Counted from the first letter of the stretch, positions 1 to 15,009 are shown. The stretch: DNA of 64,000 nucleotides from Deltaproteobacteria bacterium (GCA_029262315.1 JAJCZP010000168.1:10825-74824), one strand, 5' to 3'. A program made the numbers and translations. Notes: generated by a model from the sequence alone, not told the origin.

Positions 1-880
1 TGACATCCGCACGTGCCGTGCTGGGCTCCGACTCGAACCACTCCACCATCAGCTTGTTGACGTCGTCCGGGTGATCCAGCATCGACCAGTGACCGCCCTG
101 GATGATCTCGACGCGGCACTCGGCGTCCATGTACCGGGGTGTGTCGATGGCCTGCGTCTTCCACAGGAACATGTCGTCCTCGGGGAAGATCACCATGGTC
201 GGCACCTTGCAGTTCGGCAAGCTGTTCGGGTCCTTGGCTTGTGCCAGATAGTCCATCGGAACGTGGTTGGCCCTGTCATAGTTGAGCCACTCGATGCGGC
301 CGGTCTGCTTGACGGCCTCGATGACCTTCTCCGCCTCGGGGTGCTGGCAGAAGAAACTGCGGAAGAACCTGAAATCGTTCGCCATGTAGAGTTCTTCCAT
401 CCCATTGAGACAGTGCATGTACATGTACCAGTTGGCCTTGAGGCACTCATACATCCGTTCCGGGGTTTCATGGGCCTGGCCGAAAACGCACCGCAGGTGG
501 CCAACCGACATGGAAATGAACTTGCGGAACAGTTCCGGGCGTTGGAGGACCATGGGCCATGTGATGGCGGAACCCCAGTCATGGCCCATCAGACAAATGT
601 CCTTGAGGTCCAGCTGGTCGATGATCTCGAACATGTGCCCGATGACCTTCTCGACCTTGTACGCCTCGACCTCCACCGGCCGGTCGGTCCCTCCGTAGCC
701 GAGGGTGTCCGGCACGACCACGCGGTAGCCCGCCTTCAGCAGCGCCGGCGCCTGGTACTTCCAGCAGCTGCCGTCGTCGGGCATGCCGTGGACGAGGAAC
801 GCGACCTTGTCGCCCTCGCCCTGGTCGCTCACGTGATAGTTGTAGCCACCGATCTTCATCGTCTTGCCTGGTAGACTCAT
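1..880 (-). CDS. alpha/beta-hydrolase fold protein (epoxide-hydrolase-like); 3' end runs off window start
   Basis: Reverse-strand translation from ATG at 878-880 gives MSLPGKTMKIGGYNYHV...FLVHGMPDD...MGHDWGSAITW...GGHW. HG oxyanion motif and GHDWG nucleophile elbow are typical of the alpha/beta hydrolase / epoxide hydrolase family. The plus-strand ORF 71..874 is its antisense shadow. Confidence 0.7.
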   Translation of the reverse strand, partial: MSLPGKTMKIGGYNYHVSDQGEGDKVAFLVHGMPDDGSCWKYQAPALLKAGYRVVVPDTLGYGGTDRPVEVEAYKVEKVIGHMFEIIDQLDLKDICLMGHDWGSAITWPMVLQRPELFRKFISMSVGHLRCVFGQAHETPERMYECLKANWYMYMHCLNGMEELYMANDFRFFRSFFCQHPEAEKVIEAVKQTGRIEWLNYDRANHVPMDYLAQAKDPNSLPNCKVPTMVIFPEDDMFLWKTQAIDTPRYMDAECRVEIIQGGHWSMLDHPDDVNKLMVEWFESEPSTARADV

Positions 881-955
881 TCTCGGATCCCTTCCTTTCT
901 TTGAGAATACGGCTGCGGTCCACACGAAGACCGCCCGCTTCGAATGCGCCACCAA

Positions 956-989
956 CCTAGGGATGGGCAGGACCGTTCACATCCCTAGG
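956..989. promoter_or_regulatory. 10-bp perfect inverted repeat (cctagggatg N14 catccctagg) upstream of hydrolase start
   Basis: Read directly from sequence. It lies ~75-110 nt upstream of the minus-strand start at 880. Candidate operator or hairpin. Confidence 0.25.
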
Positions 990-1083
990 AACGGGGGAAA
1001 AACGGGGGACCACCTGGGGGAGTGCTCATCGTCGCCGACCCGGATGCCTCTGACGAAGAGGGTCGCCTCATGCTCCTCGGAAG

Positions 1084-1416
1084 CGGGTCGGGGACATCTC
1101 GGAGGACGCCTTGGCACAGCTGGGGCGATACGCGTTCCCCGGCAACATACGAGAGCTCGAGAACGAGCTGGAGCGGGCGATCCTTCTGGCCGATCCCGGG
1201 GCCGATCTCACGGAGGATCTGCTCTCGGATCATGTTCAGGATGGCGCCGGGGCTGACGCCCCGGCAAGCGCTCTAGACCGTCGCACTGCAGACTTCCAGC
1301 GGAAAGAGATCGAAGAAGCACTCAAACGGGCAGATAACGTCAAGACACGTGCCGCTGAACAACTCGGGATCACCACTCGCGGCCTCAGCAAGAAGATGCA
1401 CCGGCTGGGGATGTAG
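1084..1416 (+). pseudogene. C-terminal remnant of a sigma-54-dependent (NtrC-family) transcriptional activator
   Basis: Translation ...ISEDALAQLGRYAFPGNIRELENELERAILLA...AAEQLGITTRGLSKKMHRLGM. This is the AAA+ C-terminal 'PGNIRELEN' motif plus a Fis-type HTH. An in-frame stop lies immediately upstream (approx. 1051-1053), so there is no N-terminal receiver or AAA+ domain. Only about 110 aa remain. Confidence 0.6.
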
Positions 1417-1740
1417 CTCATCCGAAGGTCAACCGTTGCACCGCCGTGGATAGGCGAGGACCCACGGTATCTGAGCGGCGTCCATGCACCCGACCTCGAA
1501 GTCGCTGATGCAGCGCACGGAATCGATCAGGTCTACGATGGTCGCCACGTCCGCTTCGCAGGTCGCTCCGAGCGGGCCTCTCGCTCCACCGCCCACATAG
1601 CCGTCCTGGGCAAGGTGCCCTTGGGCATACGCGAGTGCTCGCCTACTGCGAGCGCGACACTATAGCGTTCGTCGAACTCCACGCCGCGTCGCGAAAGATA
1701 GGCCGCTAGCTCGATGTCGCCACCGGGAGGCTACGGCGCC

Positions 1741-2844
1741 TCATCCCGATCGCTTCTTTCTGAGCACACCCAGAGTCCGCTCCACCGTGGAGGCCGACCA
1801 TGGGTTACCCTGCTGCGTTCTGCCGCCAACGGCATCGAAACGCGCGGCAATCTCCACAGGCGTCAATCCGGCGTCAGCGAGGGCACGCATCTCCCTATGG
1901 AAGTAGGCTGGGAGCAGCACTTCGAAGGACGTTTCTCGGGCGCCGTCCTCCCAGTGGATGCGACCCCAGATACGCTCACGGTCCCGTCCCTCGATCAGAA
2001 TGGCCTGGACGGCGATCCGGAGAAGCTCCTTCTGGTCGCGCGCCTGGGTGGTTGGGGCAAACCAGATCGCACGAACGTCCCCGCAAATGGCCTCGACCTC
2101 CCTCCACTTCTCGTCCGAGAAGTCGTCTCCGATTCGATCCTCGCCAGCGGCAGCGCCTCCGCGTTCCATCTGCTCAACGCGCTCCGCCAGAGCCTCGATC
2201 TGACTTTCCAGCATCTCACGAACTCGGCGACGGTCCGGTCGACAGGTGGCGTACAGCGCGCCCAGACGATCGAACTCTTCGCGAAGTCGACGAAGCTCAT
2301 GCTGATGTCGTGTACCGGCTCGCCGCTGCTGGCGACGCCGCTCTTCCCAGAGGCGACGTACCTCTGGAATGGAAGGCCCCTGTAAATGATCCAGGAGAAG
2401 CTCAGCGACCCTCGCCTCGAAAGCGAGTCCTGGCATCGATATGCAGGCAGGACCTCCGCTCAGAAGATCTCCCATGCACCGTAGTTGGTACGACTTTGCG
2501 CGCTTCGAAGCGGAGGCCGCATACGCCACGCTCATGACGTGCTCGTCGTGACGCACGCAGCGAACGAGACCCTGCACAAGCGCAGGGCCTCGGCCCAAGG
2601 TCGAGTGGCGCGGGGTGTGGGCGTTTCGCGCGAGGATGCGGAGGTTCTCCTCGAATTCCTCGCGCGAGATGTAGCCCTCGTGATGGCCGAGCACCTCGAC
2701 CCACTGCCCGAACAGGCGCCCATTCACGACGGTGACCCCCTCCGCGCGCTCTTCCGCTTGTTGACCATTCCGTAGACGTAATCGCCGCAGAAGGCAGGGT
2801 GCCTGATCAAGTAGCGGACGCGCGCAACGGTTGGCGCGACCCAA
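1741..2844 (-). CDS. large serine recombinase, C-terminal part (recombinase domain, zinc-ribbon, coiled-coil); frame-shifted relative to the N-terminal ORF
   Basis: HEGYISREEFEENLRIL..., Cys-containing segment YQLRCMGDLLSGGPAC, and long Arg/Glu-rich coiled-coil are typical of large serine recombinases. It overlaps the 2724..3554 ORF in a different frame. Confidence 0.6.
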   Translation of the reverse strand: MGRANRCARPLLDQAPCLLRRLRLRNGQQAEERAEGVTVVNGRLFGQWVEVLGHHEGYISREEFEENLRILARNAHTPRHSTLGRGPALVQGLVRCVRHDEHVMSVAYAASASKRAKSYQLRCMGDLLSGGPACISMPGLAFEARVAELLLDHLQGPSIPEVRRLWEERRRQQRRAGTRHQHELRRLREEFDRLGALYATCRPDRRRVREMLESQIEALAERVEQMERGGAAAGEDRIGDDFSDEKWREVEAICGDVRAIWFAPTTQARDQKELLRIAVQAILIEGRDRERIWGRIHWEDGARETSFEVLLPAYFHREMRALADAGLTPVEIAARFDAVGGRTQQGNPWSASTVERTLGVLRKKRSG

Positions 2845-3554
2845 GCCACGCCGGACCCGCGCTTGGCTGGAATCTCGAGTCCGCGCCTTTTCAGCTCCCG
2901 TACCGTCTGCACGAGCGAGCGCACGGCGCGGAACACCTCGAACACCGACGCAACGGCCGTCCGGACCCGCTTGTCGGGATCCTTCCGCCAGCGACCCGTC
3001 CTGACTTCACGATCGCCCGAGCGCTCGTAGATCGCGCGATAGCCAACAGGCGGACGACTCACCGCCCGCCTATCTCGCACCTTGGCGATCCTGCCACGAT
3101 GCATGTTCTCGGTCCGGAGCTCGTTGTCACGCCCAGCGACGATCGCCTCGATCTGCTTCACGAACACTTGCGCCGAGTCGTGGGGATCGACGAGTCGACC
3201 GTCCACGATCAGCAAGACGTCGTGCGCCGCCAGCAGGCGTAGGAACAAGATCCATTCGACTGGGTCGCGGCCCGCTCGGCTGACATCCGAAATCAGGACG
3301 GCGCCCAGCTCGCCGCGCCGGATCATCGCCAGGAGCCTCTGGTAGCCCGGCCGCTTCGCCGTCATGCCGCTGAGCCCGAGGTCATCGTCGATCATGACGA
3401 TGTCGCGCTCCGACCACCCCAGGCGGAGCGCGTGCTCACGCTGTCCCTCTTGGTATCGCCGGCTGCCCTCGTTCTCTCTGACCTGCTCCAGCGTCGACTG
3501 CCGCTGGTATACGCCAGCCTTCTTCTTCAAGTACCGCTCTTCGATCTTCGTCAT
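2724..3554 (-). CDS. large serine recombinase, N-terminal part (resolvase/invertase catalytic domain plus start of recombinase domain)
   Basis: AGVYQRQSTLEQ carries the catalytic Ser. VLISDVSRAGRD, then ...NPAFCGDYVYG recombinase-domain motif. The ORF ends at 2724 while the continuation is in another frame (1741..2844). This is either a frameshifted pseudogene or a sequencing indel. Confidence 0.7.
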   Translation of the reverse strand: MTKIEERYLKKKAGVYQRQSTLEQVRENEGSRRYQEGQREHALRLGWSERDIVMIDDDLGLSGMTAKRPGYQRLLAMIRRGELGAVLISDVSRAGRDPVEWILFLRLLAAHDVLLIVDGRLVDPHDSAQVFVKQIEAIVAGRDNELRTENMHRGRIAKVRDRRAVSRPPVGYRAIYERSGDREVRTGRWRKDPDKRVRTAVASVFEVFRAVRSLVQTVRELKRRGLEIPAKRGSGVAWVAPTVARVRYLIRHPAFCGDYVYGMVNKRKSARRGSPS

Positions 3555-3743
3555 CGCTGCTTCCCTCCCCTACTCCTAGGTGCGCGCCCAGCACGCAGTT
3601 CTCGCCCTTTGGCCCCTGCCTTCCCCCGAGTCGCAGGGGGGAGCGCGACAACGCCCCCGTGCACCGCCTTGATCGCGAGATGCGCTAGCAACCTGACGGC
3701 GTCCGCCTTCCGCTTGTCGGCCTCCATGGGATGGACGACTAGC

Positions 3744-3783
3744 GCATGAGCTAACATGTTTCAAAAATTGTATGATCTCATGC
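3744..3783. promoter_or_regulatory. AT-rich imperfect inverted repeat (gcatgag N26 ctcatgc) in an otherwise GC-rich region; candidate att/recombinase or promoter site
   Basis: Seen in sequence, ~190-235 nt upstream of the serine recombinase start. Includes an ATGCAT palindrome at 3780-3785. Confidence 0.25.
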
Positions 3784-3961
3784 ATCGTATATCTCCGCTG
3801 TTACTTCGCGGGCTTACGCACGGTCGGCCTCGGCGCGGATCGTCTCGCCTCCAGATCCGTGAGGAGCTGGTGGAGGGCCCGAACCGACACGACTGCGCGG
3901 TCGAGGTCGCACCCTCGGCGGTTGTCGCCTCGCCGGTCGATGGGACCTTCCCGAACGCGAC

Positions 3962-4180
3962 TCATCGCAGCTTCCCCGTACCCGGCTGCGGAGTCCGATC
4001 GGTGGAGCCCTCAAGATCCTTCCCCTGGAGGAACTCCTCTAGAGCAGCGCGGGGCACGACGAAGCGACGCCCGACCCGAACAACCGGTATCTGCCCTTGG
4101 CGAGCTGCCTCGTAGGCACAGCTACGCCCTATCCCGAGGACCTGGGCCGCCTCTTCCACTGTCAGGGTCTCCCTCTCCAT
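3962..4180 (-). CDS. excisionase / AlpA-like helix-turn-helix DNA-binding protein
   Basis: 72 aa. LTVEEAAQVLGIGRSCAYEAARQGQIPVVRVGRRFVVPRAALEEFL matches the excisionase-family HTH_17 pattern. Confidence 0.7.
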   Translation of the reverse strand: MERETLTVEEAAQVLGIGRSCAYEAARQGQIPVVRVGRRFVVPRAALEEFLQGKDLEGSTDRTPQPGTGKLR

Positions 4181-4267
4181 CCCCTCACCTCACTGCTGAC
4201 CCTTGAACTTATAGCGATCGGCTACTAGTAAGGTAACACGCTTTCTCGCACATAAACGTCACGGAGG

Positions 4268-5353
4268 ATGGGGATGATAGATGAGGTCGTGAGGCGAGAG
4301 TTGTTCGACTTCTGCTGGGACGTGCACGTGGACGGCTACACGTTGCTCAAGACGAAGACGGTGAAGAACCGCCCCCCGCTAGTTCGCCCTACACGTCCCA
4401 GGGGCGACGCTGAGCAGGATGTCCATGAACTCGACAAGGAACGGTCACGACCCGCGCTGTTCATCACTAGTGGCCTCCCGCTCGAAGCTCAGGGATTCAA
4501 GCTGAGGAGGTTCGCCCCGCTCGCCGAGACCGGGTTGTTCCGCGAATTCGCGGGGACGGCACCTACACCAGAGGGAGTCCTGGCATTCGCTAACAAGTAT
4601 GGCCTCCTCGGCGGCAGGGTTGCGGCCGAGATCGAGCTTGACCGGCAAGCCGGTCGTGCCGCCGCTCTGGGTGAACCGCTGAGTGCCTGGCGCGATCAGA
4701 TCTTCTTCATTCGCGAGGCTCTGAGGCTCTGGGAGGATACTCGCGCGGGCAATGTCGAACGCCTCGCCAAGGTGATCCGCAAGCGAGAGGTTAGCGGCGA
4801 CGAAGGCGTCGAGTACCAAGCAGAGGAACACCCCAGCAATGAGGTCGGGTTCCCATGCTGGTACGAGAAAATCGCCACGAGAAACGTTTACTCGGACATC
4901 CTCGAGGCTTTTCCGCCAGGTGACTTGATCAAACCCGCGCTCTACCTCGTCCAGCGATGGGTGAACCGGCATCTAGAGGGAAACGTCTCACCCCTGATGC
5001 TGTGGGACAAGCACCGCTTGCGCCTGCAGCTGTACGTCGTGCCGCACAACCTGCTTGGCGCACTCTGGCTGCAGCTTGCTCGAGCGATCGAGGGAGACAA
5101 GATGTACCGCCAGTGCGGGGCCTGTATGAAGTGGTTCGAACTCTCCCCGGACACGGCCCGAACGAATCGGAAATTCTGCTCGAACGCCTGTCGGTCACGC
5201 GACTATCGCGAGCGCACTGCTGCCAGCATGCCTGCCGCTTCCCGAGGGCCTTCTGCCGACCCGCCCGCAAGACGGGAGAAGCCGACATCGCGACGTCAGC
5301 AAGGAAAGGCCGGGGCATCGAGAAGCCGGACCCGGAAGGGAGCAACCAAATGA
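4268..5353 (+). CDS. hypothetical protein with C-terminal zf-CGNR-like zinc ribbon and basic tail
   Basis: C-terminus YRQCGACMKWFELSPDTARTNRKFCSNACRSRDYRER resembles the CGNR zinc finger (C-x2-C ... RxxxFCS.ACRxRxYR). Its stop overlaps the integrase ATG (ATGA), implying translational coupling. An AT-rich divergent promoter region lies at 4181-4267. Confidence 0.5.
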   Translation: MGMIDEVVRRELFDFCWDVHVDGYTLLKTKTVKNRPPLVRPTRPRGDAEQDVHELDKERSRPALFITSGLPLEAQGFKLRRFAPLAETGLFREFAGTAPTPEGVLAFANKYGLLGGRVAAEIELDRQAGRAAALGEPLSAWRDQIFFIREALRLWEDTRAGNVERLAKVIRKREVSGDEGVEYQAEEHPSNEVGFPCWYEKIATRNVYSDILEAFPPGDLIKPALYLVQRWVNRHLEGNVSPLMLWDKHRLRLQLYVVPHNLLGALWLQLARAIEGDKMYRQCGACMKWFELSPDTARTNRKFCSNACRSRDYRERTAASMPAASRGPSADPPARREKPTSRRQQGKAGASRSRTRKGATK

Positions 5354-6519
5354 GGGGACACATTCGACAACGAGGGCAGAGGTCATGGGCGATCGTCCTC
5401 GATCTCGGTCGCGATGCACGAGGCAAGCGCCGACAGAAATGGCACAAGGTTGCCGGGACCAAGCGCGATGCCCAGCGAGAGCTTACTCGCCTACTTCGGG
5501 ATCTCGATACCGGCACCTACGTCGAGCCGTCGCAGATGACAGTCGGCACCTACCTCGAGAAGTGGCTGCGCGACTACGCGAAAACCAACGTCTCCGCCAA
5601 GACATTCGAACGCTATGCCGAGATCGCCCGCGTCCACCTCATCCCTGCGCTCGGCCACTTGCCTCTCGCAAGGATCCAGCCGCTTCATATCCAAGACTAC
5701 TACTCCGTCGCCCTAGAGAGCGGTCGTCGCGACGGCCACGGCGGGCTTTCTGCTCAAACGGTGCTCCATCATCATCGCCTGCTGCGGGCGGCCCTGCGCC
5801 AGGCGCTGAAGTGGCAGCTTCTCGGGCGGAACCCGGCCGACGCCGTCGAGCCTCCCCGGCCCAAACGTCCCGAAATGCGGGTCCTGGATGCAGCGGAAAC
5901 TGGTCGGCTCGTGGCGAGTACGAAGGGAACACGCCTATTCCTTCCTGTGCTGTTGGCCGTCACAACGGGCATGCGACGCGGAGAGATCCTTGGACTCCGT
6001 TGGAAGGACGTGGACTTGAAAAAGGCGACGCTGGCCGTACGACGGTCGCTCGAACAGACCAAGGGCGGCATTCAGTTCAAAGAACCGAAGACGCAGAAGG
6101 GGCGACGCGTGGTAGCTCTGCCAGAAATCGCCGTCGATGCCCTCCGCTCACACAAGACTCGGCAGGCAAAGCATCGCCTCCTATTGGGTCGTGTCTATGA
6201 GAATGGCGATCTCGTTTGCGCCAAGGAAAACGGTAAGCCGACCGTCCCCGCCGATCTCAGCAAGTCCTTCGCACGCCTTCTCGGTCGCCTGGAAGGCGAC
6301 GTCCCGCCGATTCGACTCCACGACCTCCGGCACACTCACGCGACACAATTGCTGCGCGAAGGCATCCACCCGAAGGTCGTTAGCGAGCGGCTCGGCCACT
6401 CGACGGTGGCTTTCACCCTCGACGTCTATTCCCATGTGCTGCCCAGCATGCAGGCTGATGCCGCCCGAAGCATCGACCGCGCACTTGCTCACACCGGAGT
6501 AGCGAACGACACCGATTGA
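5350..6519 (+). CDS. tyrosine-type site-specific integrase (phage integrase family)
   Basis: MRGHIRQRGQRSWAIVLDLG... has the N-terminal arm-binding/SAM-like organisation. Catalytic signature is RRGEILGLRWKDVDL...HDLRHTHAT...LGHSTVAFTLDVYSHV (R..HxxR..Y). The long ORF from 4957 is rejected because its upstream part is the out-of-frame tail of the preceding gene region. Confidence 0.85.
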   Translation: MRGHIRQRGQRSWAIVLDLGRDARGKRRQKWHKVAGTKRDAQRELTRLLRDLDTGTYVEPSQMTVGTYLEKWLRDYAKTNVSAKTFERYAEIARVHLIPALGHLPLARIQPLHIQDYYSVALESGRRDGHGGLSAQTVLHHHRLLRAALRQALKWQLLGRNPADAVEPPRPKRPEMRVLDAAETGRLVASTKGTRLFLPVLLAVTTGMRRGEILGLRWKDVDLKKATLAVRRSLEQTKGGIQFKEPKTQKGRRVVALPEIAVDALRSHKTRQAKHRLLLGRVYENGDLVCAKENGKPTVPADLSKSFARLLGRLEGDVPPIRLHDLRHTHATQLLREGIHPKVVSERLGHSTVAFTLDVYSHVLPSMQADAARSIDRALAHTGVANDTD

Positions 6520-6640
6520 TTTCGACCGCTTCGCGCGACGCTCCCGGCACGACTCTCCGCAAGCTGTTTCGTTCTGATACTCGTCGCACAGGCTCCCGCT
6601 TTCGATTGCGACGGCGCCGCCTTCCAGGTACCGGTGTCGC

Positions 6641-7732
6641 ATGGCCATCCGCCGGGTGCTCATCGAGAACTTCAGAAGCATCAAGAAATGCGAGTTCTTT
6701 CCAACCGACCTTTGCGCTCTTGTGGGGGAGAACAACGCGGGAAAGTCGAACATCCTCGAAGCGCTCGACCTAGTCCTCGGCAGGGACTTCGTAAGCGTGA
6801 ATACCTTCGCGGCATCTGACCACTTCAACCACGACCCAGCTGCGGACATCGTCATCGAAGTGGAGTTCGACCCACCGCTGAAGATCCAGCCGTTCAAGGG
6901 TAGCAGTCCCGTCGAGATCCCGGTTCTGCGCTACACTGTCACCCAGTTCAAGGTCGCAACGAAGCGCGGCAAGAAGGGCGACCCCAGACTGGATACGAAG
7001 TGCCTCGCTACCGACGGGAAGCCGGTTTTCATCCCACAAGAGGCTCCGAAGAAGGGCAAGAAGACGACTTTTGCTCCGCTGACGAACATCCCTCCAGAAG
7101 TCCGCGAGCAGATGCCGGTAATTTTCATAGGGACTGACCGAAGCCTTGATCGACAGCTTCCCTCAGCCGGTCGATGGTCGTTGCTTCGCCGGCTCCTTGA
7201 AGACGTGAACGATCGGCTGCGTGAGACTACCGTTACGGTCGAGAGCAACGGTAAGCTTGTGGAAAAGTCGGCTGTCGAGGTCTTCGAGGAGCAGCTCGCC
7301 TCTGCGCTCGGCACCCTTCGAATTCCGGAGTTCCAACAACTAGAGGAACTCCTGCGTGTACACGCACTCGAGAACCTCGGCTACGACCCCGAGCACGACG
7401 CGGACCGACTGCGCTTCCACTTCGGGCTCTTCGACTCGATGGCCTTCTACCGGACAGTCCGGCTTCTCTTCACAGAAGGAAGTCTCGAACTGGACGCGAC
7501 GCAAATGGGAGAGGGGGCGCAGAACGCACTCGTCATCGCGATCTTCCAGGCGTACGAGGCGCTGCGAAAGAAGGAAGCTGTCTTCCTCCTCGAGGAACCA
7601 GAGATGTTTCTACATCCGCATCGCCGTCGCTTCTTTTACCAAACCCTGCAACGCATCAGCGAGAACAACCAGATCCTCTACAGCACCCATTCTGCCAACT
7701 TCGTCTCGACGCCGGAATACGAGAACGTGTGA
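6641..7732 (+). CDS. OLD-family (overcoming lysogenization defect) ABC-type ATPase domain protein
   Basis: N-terminus IENFRSIKKCEFFPTDLCALVGENNAGKSNILEALDLVLG has the Walker A of the AAA_15/OLD family, cf. P2 Old. C-terminus AVFLLEEPEMFLHPHRRR...YSTHS has Walker B plus H-loop. It ends at TGA 7730-7732. Confidence 0.8.
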   Translation: MAIRRVLIENFRSIKKCEFFPTDLCALVGENNAGKSNILEALDLVLGRDFVSVNTFAASDHFNHDPAADIVIEVEFDPPLKIQPFKGSSPVEIPVLRYTVTQFKVATKRGKKGDPRLDTKCLATDGKPVFIPQEAPKKGKKTTFAPLTNIPPEVREQMPVIFIGTDRSLDRQLPSAGRWSLLRRLLEDVNDRLRETTVTVESNGKLVEKSAVEVFEEQLASALGTLRIPEFQQLEELLRVHALENLGYDPEHDADRLRFHFGLFDSMAFYRTVRLLFTEGSLELDATQMGEGAQNALVIAIFQAYEALRKKEAVFLLEEPEMFLHPHRRRFFYQTLQRISENNQILYSTHSANFVSTPEYENV

Positions 7733-7735
7733 CTC

Positions 7736-8320
7736 GTGTACCGGGATCCTTTCGAGTTCACGCAAGTACGAGCATCCTCACTCGAGCCAACTGAGCAACT
7801 CCGCGAGAAACTTCGTCAGGAACTGGACGCAGAACGCAACGAGCTATTCTTCGCGCGACACGTCATCCTCGTGGAAGGCGATACTGAGAAGCTGGCACTT
7901 CCGGAGTACGCGAGGCGTCTCGGGTTGAACCTCGACCGCGGGGGTTGCTCAATCGTGGAAGTTGGGGGGAAGCGGAACCTGCCCATGTTCCTAGACGTAG
8001 TCAGCTCTTTCGGCATCCCCGTTACCGTTGTCTTCGACACCGACTCGTCCGACTTCCCCAAGGGGAAACAAGACGAGGAGGAAGCCTTCAACGCCGAACT
8101 AAGCGCTCGCCAGAACGATTTAGTACGCGTCACCGAGGTCAGCCCAAAGTACGAGGCTGTTCTCCGCGACCAGATCGGCGACGCTACCTACCAAGCGCTC
8201 TGCCAGAAGTATCCGGGGGCCTCGAAACCGCGTCGGGCGCGACTGATCGCAGCCGACAACGAAGCACCCGTCCCCGCCCTCGCCAACGAGATCCTCAAAC
8301 CGCTCCTCGCACCGGAGTAG
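7736..8320 (+). CDS. OLD-family TOPRIM nuclease domain protein (in frame with upstream ATPase ORF, separated by one TGA)
   Basis: HVILVEGDTEKLALPEYARRLG...VVFDTDSSD are the TOPRIM glutamate and DxD motifs of OLD nucleases. GTG at 7736 is in the same frame as 6641..7732, 3 nt after its stop. Confidence 0.75.
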   Translation: MYRDPFEFTQVRASSLEPTEQLREKLRQELDAERNELFFARHVILVEGDTEKLALPEYARRLGLNLDRGGCSIVEVGGKRNLPMFLDVVSSFGIPVTVVFDTDSSDFPKGKQDEEEAFNAELSARQNDLVRVTEVSPKYEAVLRDQIGDATYQALCQKYPGASKPRRARLIAADNEAPVPALANEILKPLLAPE

Positions 8321-8336
8321 AACTCGGCTACCCGGT

Positions 8337-8359
8337 GGTTTGCAGATGGTTTGCAAACC
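8337..8359. promoter_or_regulatory. hairpin/palindrome ggtttgca-N7-tgcaaacc (contains perfect 12-bp palindrome GGTTTGCAAACC) between OLD gene and tRNA-Ser 3' end
   Basis: Seen in sequence. No U-tract follows. Candidate integrase core-type site or transcription attenuator. Confidence 0.3.
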
Positions 8360-8418
8360 GCTGGCAAGGCCCTCGCAGACTATCAGGACGAGGACCGCAA
8401 GCTCCTGAAGTTATTGAG

Positions 8419-8503
8419 CGGAGGGGGTGGGATTCGAACCCACGAGAGCTTGCGCCCTGCCGGTTTTCAAGACCGGTGCCTTCGACCGCTCGGCCACCCC
8501 TCC
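8419..8503 (-). tRNA. tRNA-Ser (anticodon UGA)
   Basis: Reverse complement folds as GGAGGGG-T-GGCCGAGCGGTCGAAGGC-ACCGG-CTTGAAA-ACCGG-long variable arm-GTGGGTTCGAATCCCAC-CCCCTCC-G. It has a 7-bp acceptor stem, a 5-bp anticodon stem and a loop CU-UGA-AA. The long variable arm indicates a class II tRNA. CCA is not encoded. Plus-strand ORF 8351..8650 ('GGGIRTHE') is the tRNA shadow. Confidence 0.85.
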
Positions 8504-8697: not shown

Positions 8698-11124
8698 TCA
8701 CGGATTGCACTCTGCCGCGTACTCGATACCGACCGCCGACACGTCATCCCCCACGCTCGCATCGGCCATGCAGTCGGCCTTGAACTCGAGAACGCAGCTG
8801 ATGCAGTCGACGTACTCCTGCAGGGTATCGACGTCGGCGTTGGTGCAGTCGAGGCCACTCGGATGAACGCCGTTCGGCGGCACACTGACGCTCGGGCATA
8901 CGTACGGCAGGTCGACGATGTCGCCGAGCGTGATCGTCACGCCGCTCACGGGTTCACCAACGGCATCACACACGCCGTCCTTGTCGGCGTCGCCGCCCCC
9001 ACCGCACGTCTTGCAGATCTTGGCGATGCTCTTCTGCTCGGCCTTTTTGATCTTCTCGGTGGTCTTGCTGTCGCCGGGGGTGGCGGGTGGATTGCCCGAG
9101 CCGAGTGAGGGATCGGTCTCGGGACATGCGTCGGCATCGTCATATCCGGTCTTGCTCTTCAACTTGGCGTCCCAGCACTTGTTCAAGAGCTTGTGCTTGG
9201 TCACCAGGAACTTGCCGCCCTCTTTGGCGATGGTCTCCTGACACTTGTTGACCCGCTTCCCGGGATCGCCGCTGTTGGCCGGGAAGAAGCTCGCCGTGTT
9301 GAACTCGTCGTAGAGGAGATGGTCGACGGCCTGATCCACGGCCTTGTCGACGATACATTCGAGGCACGTTCCGATGCCGCCACAATCGGTGATGGCATTG
9401 TCGCATTCGGTCCCGGTGCCTGACTCGAGGTTCATGCAGCTGCCGATGCCCCAGCCGATCGCAGCGAGCGTCTCGTCACCGTCACCCGGGGCAACCTCAC
9501 AGATCCTGTTCGACCCCCCGCAGCGCTTGGCGATCCCGTCCTTCAGCTTGGTGACGGCACGGTCGATCTTGCTACCGGGGGTCTTCAGGGCCGCGACCGT
9601 GCAGTTGGCAAAGTCGGGCATGAGCGGCGGATCGCCGCGGGTCATCGACGCTTTCTTGCACTTGTCGATGTTCTTCTGCACCTGCTTCGCGTACTTGCCG
9701 ACTTCTTTGTTGATGGCGCGCGTACACTTGGCGGAGTCGCTGCTTGCGGGTGTGGCCACGCCATCAGCAATCCCCTCGATGGCCGCCACGAGGGCGTTGT
9801 ACGCGATCAACTGGCCGGCGTTCAGGTTGCCGACGGGAAGCAGATTCATGGTCTCGAACGGGAAGGCGTTCAGGTCGAAGAACTCTTCATACACCCCATT
9901 CCGCCAGATCAACTTGTACTGATCGTCGCGAACGGCACGCTGCTCGTCGGTATACGGACCGAAACCGTTCGGCTCGAAGCGCTCGGCGTAGGAATAGGGC
10001 CGAGCCGAGGAGGTCGTGAGCGTGGGATCTTCGAGATACGGCACGAAACTCAGCGAGTCTTCGGTCGCGGCTGCGACCCCTGCGATCTCGGCGATGGTCG
10101 CGAGCAGATCCACCGAGCTGACGAGCGCCTGGCTCTCGTCGCCTTCGTCGAGGGCATCGATCCGCGGGCCCGTCACGATCAACGGGACGTTGGTTCCACC
10201 TTCGTACAGCGACCCCTTGGCGTGCGGCCCGGTGAACGGGGATTCCGACGCGCCCGACGGCGTACCGTTGTCGCCGATGAAGATGACCGTGGTATCGGCC
10301 CGGATGGGAGCAGGAATACTCGCCAATACACGGCCGATCTCGGTGTCCATCGCTTCCACGGCGGCCTTGAACTTGGTGGGATTGTCGGAGCCGGCATTGA
10401 CCGCAATGGTCGTGAGACTCGGTGGCGGCACGTGGAACGGCGTATGGGCAGCGTTGAACGCCAGCCACACGAACCACGGATCCTCGCCATACTCGGCGAT
10501 CTTCGCGATCGCCTCGTCGGCGGCGTCGGTCGTAGCATAGGTGGTCACGCCGACCTGGGTGGAGCCCGTCGTGCTCGTCGAGTTGGTCGTCTTGTTCCAC
10601 GATTCGTAGTCGCCGATGCCACCGCCGAGCCCGCCGGCGTAGTAGTCGAAGCCGGTGTCGATCGGGTGGTCGACATCGCCGTTATCGCCGATGTGCCATT
10701 TCCCGATCGCGGCGGTGTGATGCGTCGCCGTAAGTAACTCCGGAATCGTCGTCTCGTCGAGATCGAGCACCGCCGACTCGGGCACGCCGATGCCGGTCCG
10801 GAATCCGTAGCGTCCGGTCAGGGCCTCGGCGCGTGTCGGCGCGCATACGGGGTTCGTCGATGCGTGGCGAAACAGGATGCCGTCGGCGGCCAGCTGATCG
10901 ATATTGGGCGTGGGACCCGGAGCCGCCCCTTCGCCGTAGACGTTGATCCCGTCCACGCCGACGTCATCGGCGATGATGATCAGGAAGTTGTCTCGCGCCT
11001 GCGCCCACGTGGGGAGGAGAACGGCGACGAGCAACGCGATTGCCCGGAGCGCGCTCGCACTCCGACGTACGCGGCCCGCGTTGGTGGCGTGGCCCGCGTG
11101 AGCAACTCTTCGGGTTCTCGACAT
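8698..11124 (-). CDS. secreted formylglycine-type sulfatase (arylsulfatase family) with ~330-aa Cys/Lys-rich C-terminal extension
   Basis: Signal peptide ...ALRAIALLVAVLLPTWAQA. LIIIADDVG and NPVCAPTRAEALTGRY are the C-x-P-x-R formylglycine motif. GKWHIGD is also present. The C-terminal ~330 aa carry about 26 Cys in two similar modules (KCTRAINKEVGKYAKQVQKNIDKCKK... / KCQETIAKEGGKFLVTKHKLLNKCWDAKLK...). Confidence 0.8.
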   Translation of the reverse strand: MSRTRRVAHAGHATNAGRVRRSASALRAIALLVAVLLPTWAQARDNFLIIIADDVGVDGINVYGEGAAPGPTPNIDQLAADGILFRHASTNPVCAPTRAEALTGRYGFRTGIGVPESAVLDLDETTIPELLTATHHTAAIGKWHIGDNGDVDHPIDTGFDYYAGGLGGGIGDYESWNKTTNSTSTTGSTQVGVTTYATTDAADEAIAKIAEYGEDPWFVWLAFNAAHTPFHVPPPSLTTIAVNAGSDNPTKFKAAVEAMDTEIGRVLASIPAPIRADTTVIFIGDNGTPSGASESPFTGPHAKGSLYEGGTNVPLIVTGPRIDALDEGDESQALVSSVDLLATIAEIAGVAAATEDSLSFVPYLEDPTLTTSSARPYSYAERFEPNGFGPYTDEQRAVRDDQYKLIWRNGVYEEFFDLNAFPFETMNLLPVGNLNAGQLIAYNALVAAIEGIADGVATPASSDSAKCTRAINKEVGKYAKQVQKNIDKCKKASMTRGDPPLMPDFANCTVAALKTPGSKIDRAVTKLKDGIAKRCGGSNRICEVAPGDGDETLAAIGWGIGSCMNLESGTGTECDNAITDCGGIGTCLECIVDKAVDQAVDHLLYDEFNTASFFPANSGDPGKRVNKCQETIAKEGGKFLVTKHKLLNKCWDAKLKSKTGYDDADACPETDPSLGSGNPPATPGDSKTTEKIKKAEQKSIAKICKTCGGGGDADKDGVCDAVGEPVSGVTITLGDIVDLPYVCPSVSVPPNGVHPSGLDCTNADVDTLQEYVDCISCVLEFKADCMADASVGDDVSAVGIEYAAECNP

Positions 11125-11327
11125 GGCTTCACCCCCATCGTCGGATCAGTGCATCTGTTGAACCGCATTCAGGGTCACGGCGAGTCGGCACTCCCCCTAC
11201 GCGGCGTGCCAGCACTACAGCACTCGGGAACCCCTAGGGTCAACAGCGCACCAACGCTCATCTGGCCGGATTGCGATGTGCCCGCTTCGCAACCCGCACG
11301 GGCATCTGGCATCATCCGGCCGCGATC

Positions 11328-13652
11328 ATGCTTTATTTCCGTGTCAGCGAAGACCGCCCACGTACAGGGGAATCATCTTCGCGACGGCGGCAGTGGTCCC
11401 ATCCCGCCGTGCTCAGCGTCCTCGCAATGCTCCTGCTGGCTTGCGACGGCCCCACGGAGCCCACCGCACCCCCGGCGAACCCACCAACTCGGGCCGCGGC
11501 GACACCGGCCGCGCCCGCGGAGTACGTGACGAGCGAGGCGTGCGCTAGCTGCCATGCCGAAGCCTACGCGTCCTGGACAGGCTCGCACCACGACCTCGCC
11601 ATGCAACCCGCGACGGAGACGACTGTCGAGGGCGACTTCGACGACACCTCCTTCACGCACCGGGGAGTGACCTCGCGCTTCTTCCGCCGCAAGGAGCGTT
11701 TCGTCGTTCATACGCAGGGCGCCGACGGGGTCATGGCCGATTTCGAGGTCCTGTACACCTTCGGCGCGATGCCGCTCCAACAATACCTCGTTCGGCAACC
11801 GGACGGCCGGCTCCACGCGCTCACCACCGCCTGGGACGCGCGACCCGCGAGCGACGGCGGACAGCGCTGGTTCGAGCTGAACGATGGTGAGGTGCCACCG
11901 GGCGACGTGCTCCACTGGACAGGACCGGCTCAGAATTGGAACGCCACCTGCGCCGCATGCCATTCGACCGCCCTCCGGAAGGGTTTCGACATCGACGCCG
12001 GGACGTACGACACGACCTGGTCGGACGTGAACGTTGGGTGCGAGGCGTGTCACGGACCGGCCTCGCGACACGTCGCGTGGGCCGAGCGCGAACCAACAGA
12101 GAACACCGACGACGACACTCGCGGGCTGGTAGTCGATCTCGGCAACGACGGCGGGCGCTGGGTCATGAATCCCACGACAGGAATCGCCCGGCGCAGCACG
12201 CCACTCAGTACACGGACCGAGATCGACACCTGCGCCCCCTGCCATGCGCGACGCTCGATGCTACGTGAGGCGGATCCTGGCACTCCGTTTCTCGACGCCT
12301 ACCGTCCAGCATTGCTGGAGCCCGGGCTGTACCACGCCGACGGGCAGATCCGCGACGAGGTCTACGTGTGGGGCTCCTTCGTACAGAGTCGCATGTACCG
12401 TGCGGGCGTCACGTGCAGCGATTGCCATGAGCCACACACGCTGACCGTGCGCGGCGACACCGAACGCGTGTGCCACCAGTGTCACGATGTCGCGCGCTTC
12501 GGTACGACCGGGCATCACCACCATACGCCGGGAACACCAGGATCGGCTTGCGTCGACTGCCACATGCCTGCGCGCACGTACATGGGTGTCGACGAACGGC
12601 GCGATCACGGATTTCAGGTTCCGCGGCCGGATCTCAGCGCACGTCTCGATACCCCGAACGCCTGCAATGGATGCCACGCGGACCAACCCGCATCCTGGGC
12701 AGCGCGCGCGATCGCCGATTGGCCGGGCACGAAGCACGCGGGCACACCCCATTTTGCCGACGTGATGGTCACTGCCGCTCGCGGGGAGCCCGAGGCCATC
12801 CAAGGGCTGGCGGGCCTGAGCGCCGATCCGGACCTGGCCGGGATCGTGCGGGCGACGGCGTTGGCGCAGCTGCCCGGGGCGTTGACGCAGCTCCCCGGGG
12901 CCCCGGCCCCGCTCCTCGCCGCCGCCATCATGCGGGCGCGCGATGATACCGATCCACTGGTTCGCTTCGCCGCCGCGGGCGCCGCGGCTGGGCTCCCCCC
13001 CGCCGATCGCATCGCGCTGCTGACGCCTCTCCTTGCGGATCCCGTGGAGCTGGTTCGAAGCGAGGCCGGCCGCAACCTCGCGCCTGCGCCGCGAACCGCG
13101 CTCGACGCGGCGCAGGCCGAACGGCTCGACGCGGCCCTGCGCACGTACCGACGCCACCAACGGACGAACGCCGACCAGCCGAGCGCCCACGTCAATCTTG
13201 GCCTGCTCTACGCGGAGATGCAGCAACCCTCCCTGGCCGAGAGCGCCTACCGGCGCGCGATCGCGGTCGGGCCGTGGTTCATCCCGGCCTACGTCAACCT
13301 GGCCGATCTGTACCGCGCCACGGGACGGGACGAGAACAGCGAGGCGGTGCTGCTCGCCGCGCTCGAGCAGACACACGACGTCGCGGAGGTCCACCACGCA
13401 CTGGGCCTCCTCCGCGTGCGGCAACAGCGGCTCGATGCCGCCCTCCCTTCGCTCGAGACCGCTGCGACGCTCGCACCTGAGAATCCCCGCTTCGCCTACG
13501 TATACGGCGTGGCCCTGCACTCCTCCGGCCGGACCGAGCAGGCCCTCGACGTGCTGCGCGCGGCGCGCGCACGACATCCGCATCACACCGAGACGAGCCA
13601 GGCCCTCGCCACGTTCGGCCGCGAGCCCGGCGTCGACAGCGCCGACGACTAG
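11328..13652 (+). CDS. multiheme (8x CXXCH) c-type cytochrome lipoprotein with C-terminal TPR-like repeats
   Basis: Eight CXXCH motifs: CASCH, CAACH, CEACH, CAPCH, CSDCH, CHQCH, CVDCH, CNGCH. Lipobox LLLAC. The C-terminal ~250 aa are Ala/Leu-rich TPR-like (..AHVNLGLLYAEMQQPSLAESAYRRAIAVGP..YVNLADLY..). Start chosen is ATG 11328; alternatives are GTG 11409 and ATG 11427. The ORF from 11271 is possible. Confidence 0.7.
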   Translation: MLYFRVSEDRPRTGESSSRRRQWSHPAVLSVLAMLLLACDGPTEPTAPPANPPTRAAATPAAPAEYVTSEACASCHAEAYASWTGSHHDLAMQPATETTVEGDFDDTSFTHRGVTSRFFRRKERFVVHTQGADGVMADFEVLYTFGAMPLQQYLVRQPDGRLHALTTAWDARPASDGGQRWFELNDGEVPPGDVLHWTGPAQNWNATCAACHSTALRKGFDIDAGTYDTTWSDVNVGCEACHGPASRHVAWAEREPTENTDDDTRGLVVDLGNDGGRWVMNPTTGIARRSTPLSTRTEIDTCAPCHARRSMLREADPGTPFLDAYRPALLEPGLYHADGQIRDEVYVWGSFVQSRMYRAGVTCSDCHEPHTLTVRGDTERVCHQCHDVARFGTTGHHHHTPGTPGSACVDCHMPARTYMGVDERRDHGFQVPRPDLSARLDTPNACNGCHADQPASWAARAIADWPGTKHAGTPHFADVMVTAARGEPEAIQGLAGLSADPDLAGIVRATALAQLPGALTQLPGAPAPLLAAAIMRARDDTDPLVRFAAAGAAAGLPPADRIALLTPLLADPVELVRSEAGRNLAPAPRTALDAAQAERLDAALRTYRRHQRTNADQPSAHVNLGLLYAEMQQPSLAESAYRRAIAVGPWFIPAYVNLADLYRATGRDENSEAVLLAALEQTHDVAEVHHALGLLRVRQQRLDAALPSLETAATLAPENPRFAYVYGVALHSSGRTEQALDVLRAARARHPHHTETSQALATFGREPGVDSADD

Positions 13653-13697
13653 CAGAAGCCCGCACATCAGCTCGCTCATCGAGAGCTGACGCGATCG

Positions 13698-13730
13698 GCA
13701 CCCGCCTCCCGCTGGCGGGTGCCGTGTTTT
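13698..13730 (+). terminator. rho-independent terminator downstream of cytochrome gene
   Basis: gcacccgcc-tcccgct-ggcgggtgc, a 9-bp GC stem with 7-nt loop, followed by cgtgtttt. Confidence 0.55.
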
Positions 13731-13992
13731 GCTCCCTCCGCATCCGGGGCCCCACCCGCACGGCGATAGCGCACCCCAGACCCGCACCCAAGCGCGCGCA
13801 CCGAAAGCCGAAACGCGCAGGCGCGCCCGCGCCCACCATGAGACTTCCCGTGCCTCGCGCCACTCGCCGTCGCGGGCGCGCGACTTGCTGTTTCCCTCTG
13901 TCGTGAGCAGACCGAACACGAATTCGACGCACTCCACGGGCCGTAGCGCCGAGCGCACTGCGCGTGCGACCACGCAACCAAGCGGCGCCGCC

Positions 13993-15009
13993 GTGGCGGG
14001 CGTCACGAAATCGTCGACCTCACCCTCGAAACGACAACGGCTTTCGAAGGCGGCGCTCGCCCTCCTCGTGGGCGTGCTGGCAATCGCATGGAGTCCGCGC
14101 GTCGAGGCGTTGATCGTTGGCGGCGGAGGCAGCCGCACAACGGACTGCCTCGCCGTCTTCAACGCGCCCGCGAATCGCCCCGCGCGCCGGCCACGCCACA
14201 TTCAGTGCACCGACGGCGACCCCTGCGATGCGGACGGCCTGGTCGATGGCCAGTGCAGCTTCCCGGTCGCGGCCTGCATCAACAGCACGCTGATCGATCG
14301 CTGCTCCCTGACCGGCATCGAGACCCTCACGGTCGAGCATGCCGAGGACAATGGCGACCCGGAGTTCGACCCCGACTTCCAGGCACTGCAGGCGCGCATC
14401 GACGCCGACCTGACTTTCCCGAGCCTCGCGACGAACCAGTGTGCGCTACCAGCCACGATCCAGGTACCCGTCCGCGGGCCCTTCCGGAAGAATCGCTGCA
14501 AGAAGGGGAAGAAGCGCCTGCGAATGCGCGCCGTCTCGACCCTGATCGACGACCGACGCGTCAAGGTCGATCGCGACGACCTCAAGCTCACGTGCCTGCC
14601 GGCACCGAGCGGCTGCAGTCCACGTCAATTCTTCTCGTCCACCTTCGATCGAGTGCAGCGCCAGATCTTCAATCAGACCTGCGCGGTCAGTGCCTGCCAC
14701 GACTCGGAAGCCGTCGCGGGCAGCCTGCTCCTCGAGACGGGCGCGTCGCATGCCAACCTGGTGGGCGCGATCCCAACGAACGCTCTCGCCGGGAATGCCG
14801 GCTGGCACCGCGTCGCGGTTCCCGCGCCGGGCACCGGCGATCTCACACGAAGCTACCTGCTGCACAAGATCACGGGGGACCTGCCCACAGGCTTCGGCTC
14901 ACGCATGCCTCTCGGCGGACGCAAGCTCGATCGCACGTTGGTGGACGTCATCACGCTTTGGATCGCCGCGGGTGCTCCGAACGACGGGTGGGTCCCCGGA
15001 ACAGACTAG
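13993..15009 (+). CDS. secreted Cys-rich protein with C-terminal PSCyt1-like (planctomycete cytochrome-c-like) domain
   Basis: Putative signal peptide KRQRLSKAALALLVGVLAIAWSPRVEA after GTG 13993. C-terminus FDRVQRQIFNQTCAVSACHDS...LLLE...VPAPGTGDLTRSYLLHKITGDLP...MPLGGRKLDRTLVDVITLWIAAGAP matches the PSCyt1 pattern but with C-x4-CH instead of CXXCH. Start is uncertain; the long ORF from 13729 has an Arg-rich, unlikely N-terminus. Confidence 0.45.
   Translation: MAGVTKSSTSPSKRQRLSKAALALLVGVLAIAWSPRVEALIVGGGGSRTTDCLAVFNAPANRPARRPRHIQCTDGDPCDADGLVDGQCSFPVAACINSTLIDRCSLTGIETLTVEHAEDNGDPEFDPDFQALQARIDADLTFPSLATNQCALPATIQVPVRGPFRKNRCKKGKKRLRMRAVSTLIDDRRVKVDRDDLKLTCLPAPSGCSPRQFFSSTFDRVQRQIFNQTCAVSACHDSEAVAGSLLLETGASHANLVGAIPTNALAGNAGWHRVAVPAPGTGDLTRSYLLHKITGDLPTGFGSRMPLGGRKLDRTLVDVITLWIAAGAPNDGWVPGTD

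Follow-up and report, generated by a model that had tools for sequence, protein, structure and literature searches.

The stretch of 64,000 nucleotides analysed here (the window; Deltaproteobacteria bacterium, GCA_029262315.1 JAJCZP010000168.1:10825-74824) carries, between positions 1084 and 8503, genes for a tyrosine integrase and a large serine recombinase (LSR) beside a tRNA-Ser(TGA) gene. This region is a mobile insertion that has the 3' end of the tRNA gene as its boundary. In the reading that we consider probable, the stretch from about 1417 or 1741 to 8417 would be a single integrative island of about 6.7-7 kb, a member of a widespread and undescribed family of small tRNA-targeting elements, which is missing its distal end and is degenerating at the site. 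Comparison with related loci establishes the anatomy of the island, its conservation in the family, and its boundary at the tRNA gene, and points to immobilisation of the present copy.

The tRNA-Ser(tga) gene at 8418-8503 on the minus strand, identified by ARAGORN and Rfam, is the sole tRNA gene of the window, and Rfam detected nothing besides it. Its 3' end, which would serve as the core of the attachment site attL, points to lower coordinates, so that the genes listed in the original prediction, a model's reading of the sequence, do lie on the side which that prediction gave them. A homology search with the sulfatase gene beyond the tRNA retrieved locus L114, in which the sulfatase ortholog is 91% identical at the amino acid level. 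L114 and the window are collinear from 19998 down to 8417 with 84% nucleotide identity, and the match ends there; the two tRNA-Ser genes differ at one position in the D-loop and divergence starts 2 nt beyond the tRNA end. Past the tRNA, L114 carries other genes together with an integrase that is just 25-28% identical to the window integrase. As homology breaks off within 1-2 nt of the tRNA end to give way to another island, the site is an integration hotspot. The predicted anchoring of a mobile island to the 3' end of tRNA-Ser(TGA) is thereby borne out, and relatives with identical gene content at this tRNA, which would have spoken against an insertion, were not seen, the island of L114 being a different one. 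A truly empty site, with an island-free tRNA-Ser locus, was not found among the relatives retrieved. When measured by the features used for Islander-type islands, the region contains a tyrosine integrase, faces the 3' end of a tRNA gene, and shows content polymorphism in a related genome (L114) with its breakpoint at the tRNA; a displaced tRNA 3' fragment forming a direct repeat (attR) is missing from the 64 kb searched.

The tyrosine integrase gene (5350-6519, plus strand) has an intact reading frame with Phage_int_SAM_3 and Phage_integrase domains and a weak Arm-DNA-bind_4 match, and its sequence shows the catalytic residues R, K, HxxR, H, and Y. The encoded protein is 60-66% identical to the integrases of the related loci L026, L030, L053, and L074. 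The ATG start codon overlaps the stop codon of the upstream open reading frame (ORF; 4268-5353, plus strand) as ATGA at 5350-5353, in agreement with the predicted translational coupling, and the same overlap is present in L030. The divergently transcribed gene at 3962-4180 on the minus strand, which had been called excisionase-like, belongs to the excisionase family according to both models consulted: HTH_17 (PF12728; E = 8e-15) scores 55.2 against a cut-off of 27, and TIGR01764 ('excise') scores 52.4 bits against 28.8. The recombinase calls likewise survived homology search, with Pfam and NCBIfam supporting every gene named in the prediction, apart from the zf-CGNR label discussed below. Judged by these domains and their arrangement, the genes at 3962-4180 and 5350-6519 probably function as excisionase and integrase, respectively. 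The 87 nt that separate the excisionase-family gene from the upstream ORF (4181-4267) presumably form a control region; they contain no match to the consensus sigma-70 promoter, and a promoter and terminator scan was uninformative. A putative small ORF of 54 amino acids (3801-3965, minus strand) has a start codon that overlaps the stop codon of the excisionase-family gene. A small ORF occurs at that position in L026 and L030 as well, with weak similarity (26-28%), and the P0008 contig has a 63-aa gene there. Comparison with L026 and L030 led us to drop another candidate for the small ORF, 3576-3785, in favour of 3801-3965.

The breadth of the family was surveyed by a metagenome scan with an alignment of the proteins related to the 361-aa product of 4268-5353, which yielded 80 loci. 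A related tyrosine integrase gene stands directly 3' of the 361-aa-family gene in 13 of the 37 loci with enough downstream DNA, and in 19 of 60 evaluable loci a related HTH_17 gene lies upstream of it in divergent orientation. Three loci have a DUF2924-like gene and an LSR gene downstream of the 361-aa-family gene instead of a tyrosine integrase gene. Several members encode a D5_N/DUF5906 primase-helicase to the left of the excisionase gene, at the position taken by the LSR gene in the window; no primase gene was found in the window copy (881-8417 checked). The integrases of L053, L064, and L074 (50-62% identity) are encoded 1.5-1.9 kb from a tRNA-Ser gene (cga or tga) that lies on the strand opposite the integrase gene, the same geometry as in the window, and more distant family integrases adjoin tRNA-Thr, tRNA-Met, tRNA-Leu, or tRNA-Asp genes. 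In L029 and L060, 57-bp tRNA-derived direct repeats bound elements of 6.9 and 9.8 kb. We also noted three copies of the tRNA-Leu 3' region (57-117 nt) in L060, at 13-129, 1730-1786, and 11484-11600, an arrangement which seems to indicate two tandem elements at one tRNA. In L064, the 5' end of the tRNA-Ser gene and its upstream bases (11516-11547) are repeated at 11706-11729 and 11876-11902; these extra repeats of 24-27 nt (96-100% identity) lie on the 5' side of the tRNA, i.e., opposite the island.

A tandem GGTTTGCARA repeat at 8337-8357 (plus strand), located between the cargo gene and the tRNA gene, reads GGTTTGCAGA-T-GGTTTGCAAA. This repeat is kept 76-95 nt from the tRNA-Ser gene in L053, L064, and L074, with GTTAGCA as the L064 version of the motif, and is not found in L114, where the integrase is unrelated and a different tandem repeat occupies the equivalent place. 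The repeats are candidate arm-type integrase-binding sites of attL, as their conservation and position suggest. Since a conserved repeat lies between the cargo and the tRNA, the cargo would on this reading fall inside the element. The 64-kb window contains three occurrences of GTTTGCA, all of them inside the 8337-8357 cluster, and no second cluster. The tandem repeat of L114 (about 11575-11600) consists of two copies of ACACGGACAA at a distance of about 55-80 nt from the end of the tRNA gene, and is probably the arm-type site of that island's own integrase. In L074, an inverted GTTTGCA pair (3115-3132) sits within the 87 nt that separate the 361-aa-family gene from the integrase gene, and may serve in integrase autoregulation; in the window these two genes overlap and no GTTTGCA site lies between them.

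A search for the other end of the element was conducted with the 3' part of the tRNA gene. No copy was found in 1-8400 or in the whole 64 kb by blastn with a word size of 7, nor in the 64 kb by a repeat finder, an exact 8-mer scan, or Smith-Waterman alignment against shuffled sequences. The absence of an attR copy from 1-8400, noted by eye in the original prediction, is thus upheld by three kinds of search (blastn, exact-match scan, and Smith-Waterman) and extends to 64 kb. The clean 57-bp tRNA-derived direct repeats of L029 and L060 were recovered as positive controls, which validates the method of repeat search.

Between the integrase and tRNA genes, which are its neighbours, lies a gene that was absent from the features previously listed for this region, encoding a class-1 OLD nuclease (6641-8320, plus strand) with AAA_15/AAA_21 and OLD-like_TOPRIM domains. 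OLD-type ATPase-TOPRIM nucleases are classic phage and satellite cargo, as exemplified by P2 old. The best PADLOC model for 6641-8320 is 'Old', and the product aligns without a break to Thermus scotoductus OLD (6p74) over residues 3-481 (E = 7e-50). Assignment to class 1 follows from the combination of ATPase and TOPRIM domains in a single protein and from the lack of a helicase partner beside it; in class 1 members such as P2 Old and 6p74, one polypeptide likewise carries an ABC-type ATPase at its N-terminus and a TOPRIM domain at its C-terminus. Unlike in these proteins, the coding sequence in the window is cut by an in-frame TGA (7730-7732) at a codon which aligns to an Arg of 6p74, and the product is presumably inactive owing to this stop codon. 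Sliding profiles of GC and tetranucleotide content, which had been proposed as a check, single out the same segment: 6501-8500 is the strongest tetranucleotide outlier of the 64 kb (z = 4.1), with a GC content of 0.59 compared with 0.65. The remainder of the region, including the LSR segment, is average in composition, and the foreign signature is limited to the OLD cargo. Other members hold different genes at this place. The gap between integrase and tRNA is filled by SoFic in L074 (E = 2e-122), by an SDH-type protease in L053, and by two unknown genes in L064, and the slot after the integrase holds a SAVED-domain effector in L030. This series suggests that the slot between integrase and tRNA is a swap site for defence genes.

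The second recombinase gene occupies 1741-3554 on the minus strand and is split into two parts, 2724-3554 (Resolvase and Recombinase domains) and 1741-2844. These would join to a protein of 604 amino acids if one base were added to or removed from the C5 run at 2736-2740, and the frameshifted LSR of the original prediction is confirmed with this one break, which is possibly a sequencing or assembly error. The YxRxS catalytic motif is present. In common with known LSRs (XisF, Ccr, TnpX/TndX, and phage integrases), the protein has a Resolvase domain with the YxRxS serine, a Recombinase domain, a Cys/His zinc-site region, a long coiled-coil-like segment, and, with the frame restored, a length of about 600 amino acids, within the range of about 450-700 expected for an LSR made as one polypeptide; unlike them, it gives no Pfam match to Zn_ribbon_recom. 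Its similarity to XisF and CcrB in NCBIfam is weak and far under every curated family cut-off. The clade is very small, with four homologs of about 600 amino acids at 44-50% identity and the next at 30% or less, and it is absent in scans of viral contigs. On those contigs, integrases 45-49% identical to that of the window sit at prophage ends without a 361-aa gene.

The context of the LSR gene is best seen in L026, an independent contig which is collinear with 1771-6486 of the window and encodes, in the same order, an LSR, the small ORF, the HTH_17 protein, a 361-aa homolog, and a tyrosine integrase. The LSR of L026 is intact (605 amino acids). No other gene lies between the LSR gene of L026 and the C-terminus of a chromosomal MFS-transporter gene, just as the window LSR gene is the last before a remnant of a sigma-54 activator gene. 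The closest LSR homolog, in L115, is encoded divergently from an HTH_17 gene and a tyrosine integrase gene of a different family, and another clade member, in L116, is not beside such a module; counted together, the clade stands beside tyrosine-integrase modules in three of the four contexts examined. The shared order in L026 argues that the recombinase pair was inherited as a block and was not created at this locus. As such, the two recombinases are probably not the mark of two nested elements, and the earlier suggestion of either nested elements or a mosaic island appears unlikely in light of L026 and L115. Two observations concern the recombinase itself. In L115, a copy of the N-terminal ~130 residues of the LSR (2752-3195), 57% identical to the window LSR, precedes the LSR gene (3182-5002), which suggests a partial tandem duplication. 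Moreover, most of the distant homologs P0184-P0296 (about 690 amino acids) have an HTH_17 excisionase-type domain fused N-terminally, so that the HTH_17 protein of the window could act together with the LSR as well as with the tyrosine integrase.

The left end of the island is less sharply defined. The predicted truncated sigma-54 activator fragment is present at 1084-1416 on the plus strand (about 110 amino acids; AAA_lid_14 and HTH_8) and is not part of the conserved module. Its similarity to NtrC/NorR-type activators, which have 445-690 amino acids, is confined to their last ~105 residues, a stop codon occurs 16 codons upstream of it, no AAA+ core exists in any frame, and no counterpart was found in any related locus retrieved. 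Insertion of an LSR element into a sigma-54 gene was considered and ruled out: the fragment has its truncated end on the side away from the LSR gene, and therefore does not represent a target gene that this element has split. The left end is expected within 1417-1740, between the remnant and the 3' end of the LSR gene. The equivalent part of L026 measures about 340 nt from the LSR stop codon to the MFS-transporter C-terminus, and 1417-1740 shows no similarity to the left end of L026, to the tRNA, or to the GTTTGCA motif. On the left flank, an alpha/beta hydrolase gene (2-880) has 15 relatives with 70-92% identity in metagenome-assembled genomes, retrieved by a contig scan; upstream they have nothing in common with the window or with each other, and none has a tRNA-Ser gene. 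The left boundary is bracketed between about 881 and 1740. The hydrolase orthologs of L001-L015 share downstream synteny and yet carry clashing taxonomic labels (Inquilinaceae, Desulfobacterales, Kiloniellales, cyanobacteria, Cloacimonadaceae, Nitrospinae, and others), which cannot all be correct.

The ORF at 4268-5353 had been described as zf-CGNR-like. Its 361-aa product has no match in Pfam, NCBIfam, or PADLOC, and 56 homologs were found, the closest of which (51% identity) is encoded on L026. The family is large: among 1.84 billion proteins, 3428 cluster representatives match it at E <= 1e-30. Invariant cysteines in the pattern C-x2-C...C-x3-C make up a zinc ribbon, and most members end in a helix-turn-helix (HTH) domain similar to HTH_23 and HTH_7 that the window copy lacks. 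An AF2 model of the protein (pLDDT 86, pTM 0.82) matched a sole solved structure, 3h0n, with a probability of 0.97 and a TM-score of only 0.20-0.34; a comparison of the family profile with PDB sequences matched only HTH domains and an L24e-like zinc ribbon. The earlier description holds at the level of the fold, in that the protein and DUF1470/ABATE plus zf-CGNR (3h0n) both have, in the C-terminal part, a treble-clef-like zinc ribbon with four Cys and a basic helix after it. It does not hold as family membership, as 19 family members gave no Pfam match to zf-CGNR (PF11706) or ABATE at E <= 1. Compared with 3h0n and DUF1470, the N-terminal ~270 residues have no recognised relative and represent a new domain, and the C-terminal HTH_23/HTH_7-like domain of most family members is an addition. 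Given the site of the gene between the divergent control region and the integrase gene, its predicted co-transcription with the latter, and the DNA-binding modules of its product, we infer a regulatory role, and the protein may be a regulator of integrase expression or of recombination.

Taken together, these features can be accommodated by a simple scheme. A divergent operon pair would form the core of the family. The leftward operon would be headed by the HTH_17 excisionase-family gene and followed in most members by a D5-type primase-helicase gene, with an LSR gene in its stead in the window and in L026; the opposite operon would express the 361-aa zinc-ribbon protein translationally coupled to the tyrosine integrase, which would set the specificity for tRNA-Ser. 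Integration would yield the order integrase, cargo slot, arm-type repeats, and regenerated tRNA end, with the slot filled here by a class-1 OLD nuclease gene. We infer that this copy is probably immobilised, in view of the nonsense codon of the OLD gene, the frameshift of the LSR gene, the lack of a replication gene, and the loss of the far attachment site, and the sigma-54 fragment would be a remnant of DNA from beyond the lost end. The integrase, HTH_17, and 361-aa genes are still intact and of full length, and attL looks complete. The earlier view of the element as old or decayed thus gains the OLD nonsense codon, the LSR frameshift, and the missing attR; the frameshift may be an assembly error.

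Several observations weigh against this scheme. The frameshift falls in a homopolymer and may be artefactual for that reason. The three tRNA-Ser relatives, the elements of which extend past the available DNA, yielded no tRNA-derived repeat either; it follows that the att core may be short, which makes the missing attR weaker evidence of decay. The LSRs of the window and L026 are 35-43% identical compared with 65% for the integrases, and such a divergence fits module exchange better than simple co-descent. A gap of 246 nt separates the small ORF from the LSR start (159 nt in L026), so that the LSR gene may be a separate transcription unit. An LSR gene is missing from that position in L030, L053, L064, and L074, whose integrases are close relatives, and the linkage of the LSR to the module is based on two, perhaps three, loci. 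Finally, the left boundary is bracketed and not mapped, no empty-site relative was found, and the 15 relatives of the hydrolase flank have nothing in common with the window upstream of that gene.

Some of these points could be read as signs of two independent elements in tandem or nested, namely a tyrosine-integrase island and an LSR unit at or near its distal end. The uneven identities of the two recombinases, the intergenic gap, which leaves room for a promoter or a junction, and the relatives without an LSR gene would all agree with such an arrangement, and the junction would be invisible because LSR elements leave no long direct repeats. What makes it unlikely is that the LSR gene has the same position and orientation in two otherwise collinear elements and is terminal in both, so that a recombinase gene would be all there is to the second element. 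Moreover, the LSR gene of L115 is also divergent from an HTH_17 gene with a tyrosine integrase gene of another family, and the interval from the small ORF to the LSR gene holds no remains of a target gene that was disrupted. It is slightly less probable again that the island is intact and mobile, the frameshift and perhaps the TGA being assembly errors, with an att core too short to detect or an LSR that acts at the left end on sites sharing a dinucleotide. The single-base nature of the change in the C5 run, the three full-length genes, attL with its intact arm repeats, and the tRNA-Ser relatives that are likewise without a detectable direct repeat are all compatible with this idea. However, a substitution that creates TGA at the Arg codon of a solved homolog is an atypical assembly error, more distant family members do have 57-bp repeats, a second arm-motif cluster is missing in 64 kb, the replication module of most relatives is lacking, and a truncated gene abuts the left end.

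An ordinary variable region or an assembly chimera beside the tRNA, with no mobile insertion at all, would be in keeping with a left flank that has no synteny to the hydrolase relatives, with a source that is a contig of an uncultured genome, and with a mostly average composition. This explanation is highly improbable: the L114 homology breaks within 2 nt of the tRNA end, and integrase, excisionase gene, and arm-type repeats occur in a geometry common to tRNA-Ser elements on four unrelated contigs. A bolder and rather doubtful idea is that the LSR, excisionase, 361-aa protein, and tyrosine integrase form a functional dual-recombinase module, with the ~600-aa LSR clade as a dedicated partner of tyrosine-integrase islands and the 361-aa family as a new integrase-coupled regulator or directionality factor. 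If this were true, the LSR might open up another target site, serve to resolve or excise islands in tandem, or govern the left end, and the 361-aa family, with its thousands of members and no Pfam model, would work with either type of recombinase.

In its presumed function, the element resembles the tRNA-anchored defence islands described as tycheposons, phage-inducible chromosomal island (PICI)-like elements, and P4-like satellites. The likeness to tycheposons and PICI-like islands is architectural only and concerns the small size, site-specific integrase, excisionase, primase/helicase, variable cargo, and tRNA-proximal location. For tycheposons, tRNA-Ser(TGA) is among the named integration sites and elements have either a tyrosine or a large serine recombinase (10.1101/2020.12.28.424599). 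As among tycheposon-type islands, degenerate elements accumulate beside the tRNA and related genomes hold different islands at one tRNA, here L114. In contrast to tycheposons, the window element has both recombinase types, and the hallmark genes listed for them do not include the 361-aa zinc-ribbon gene coupled to the integrase gene. P4-like satellites have a variable locus adjoining int with a different defence system in each element (PMC9122126); the defence-gene slot of the present family is comparable to their psu-int hotspot, tRNA integration is shared, and the family relatives also share an AlpA/HTH_17-type regulator and a D5/alpha-type primase-helicase. The slot is situated between the integrase gene and the att site and not between psu and int, however, the window copy is without a primase, and the host belongs to an uncultured high-GC lineage. 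Only the integrase and HTH_17 genes of the window correspond to P4-like genes, with no primase and no Pfam match for the other ORFs. No psu, delta, sid, or cos was detected, psu, delta, and sid not having been searched by dedicated profiles. Likewise, 881-8417 contains neither the primase nor the packaging gene of a PICI, although relatives do have a D5 primase. Because the core genes of those families are absent, the island is not a member of the P4 or PICI family. Its departures from the described kinds are the zinc-ribbon gene coupled to the integrase gene, the cargo slot between integrase and attL, and the LSR in one sublineage.

Small tRNA-anchored islands are a main route of anti-phage gene exchange among bacteria, and the integrase-tRNA cargo slot of this family could be mined for defence genes in uncultured lineages. 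The 361-aa protein, with its confidently predicted fold and a gene tightly coupled to that of the integrase, is a tractable candidate for an integration regulator. The recurrent pairing of a rare LSR with a tyrosine integrase raises the question of why two site-specific recombinases are kept. The window copy itself appears to be a largely decayed, ordinary island, and it is the family and the dual-recombinase question that are worth following.

Two further observations were made on the far side of the tRNA. The adjoining sulfatase gene (8698-11124, minus strand) encodes a cysteine-rich C-terminal extension of about 380 amino acids, and only homolog P0057 (91% identity) covers the protein at full length, the others reaching the first 50-60%. 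The region 12500-14500, with a GC content of 0.71-0.74 against a mean of 0.65, is the second strongest tetranucleotide outlier, and this high-GC stretch lies inside and just past an ORF at 11271-13652.

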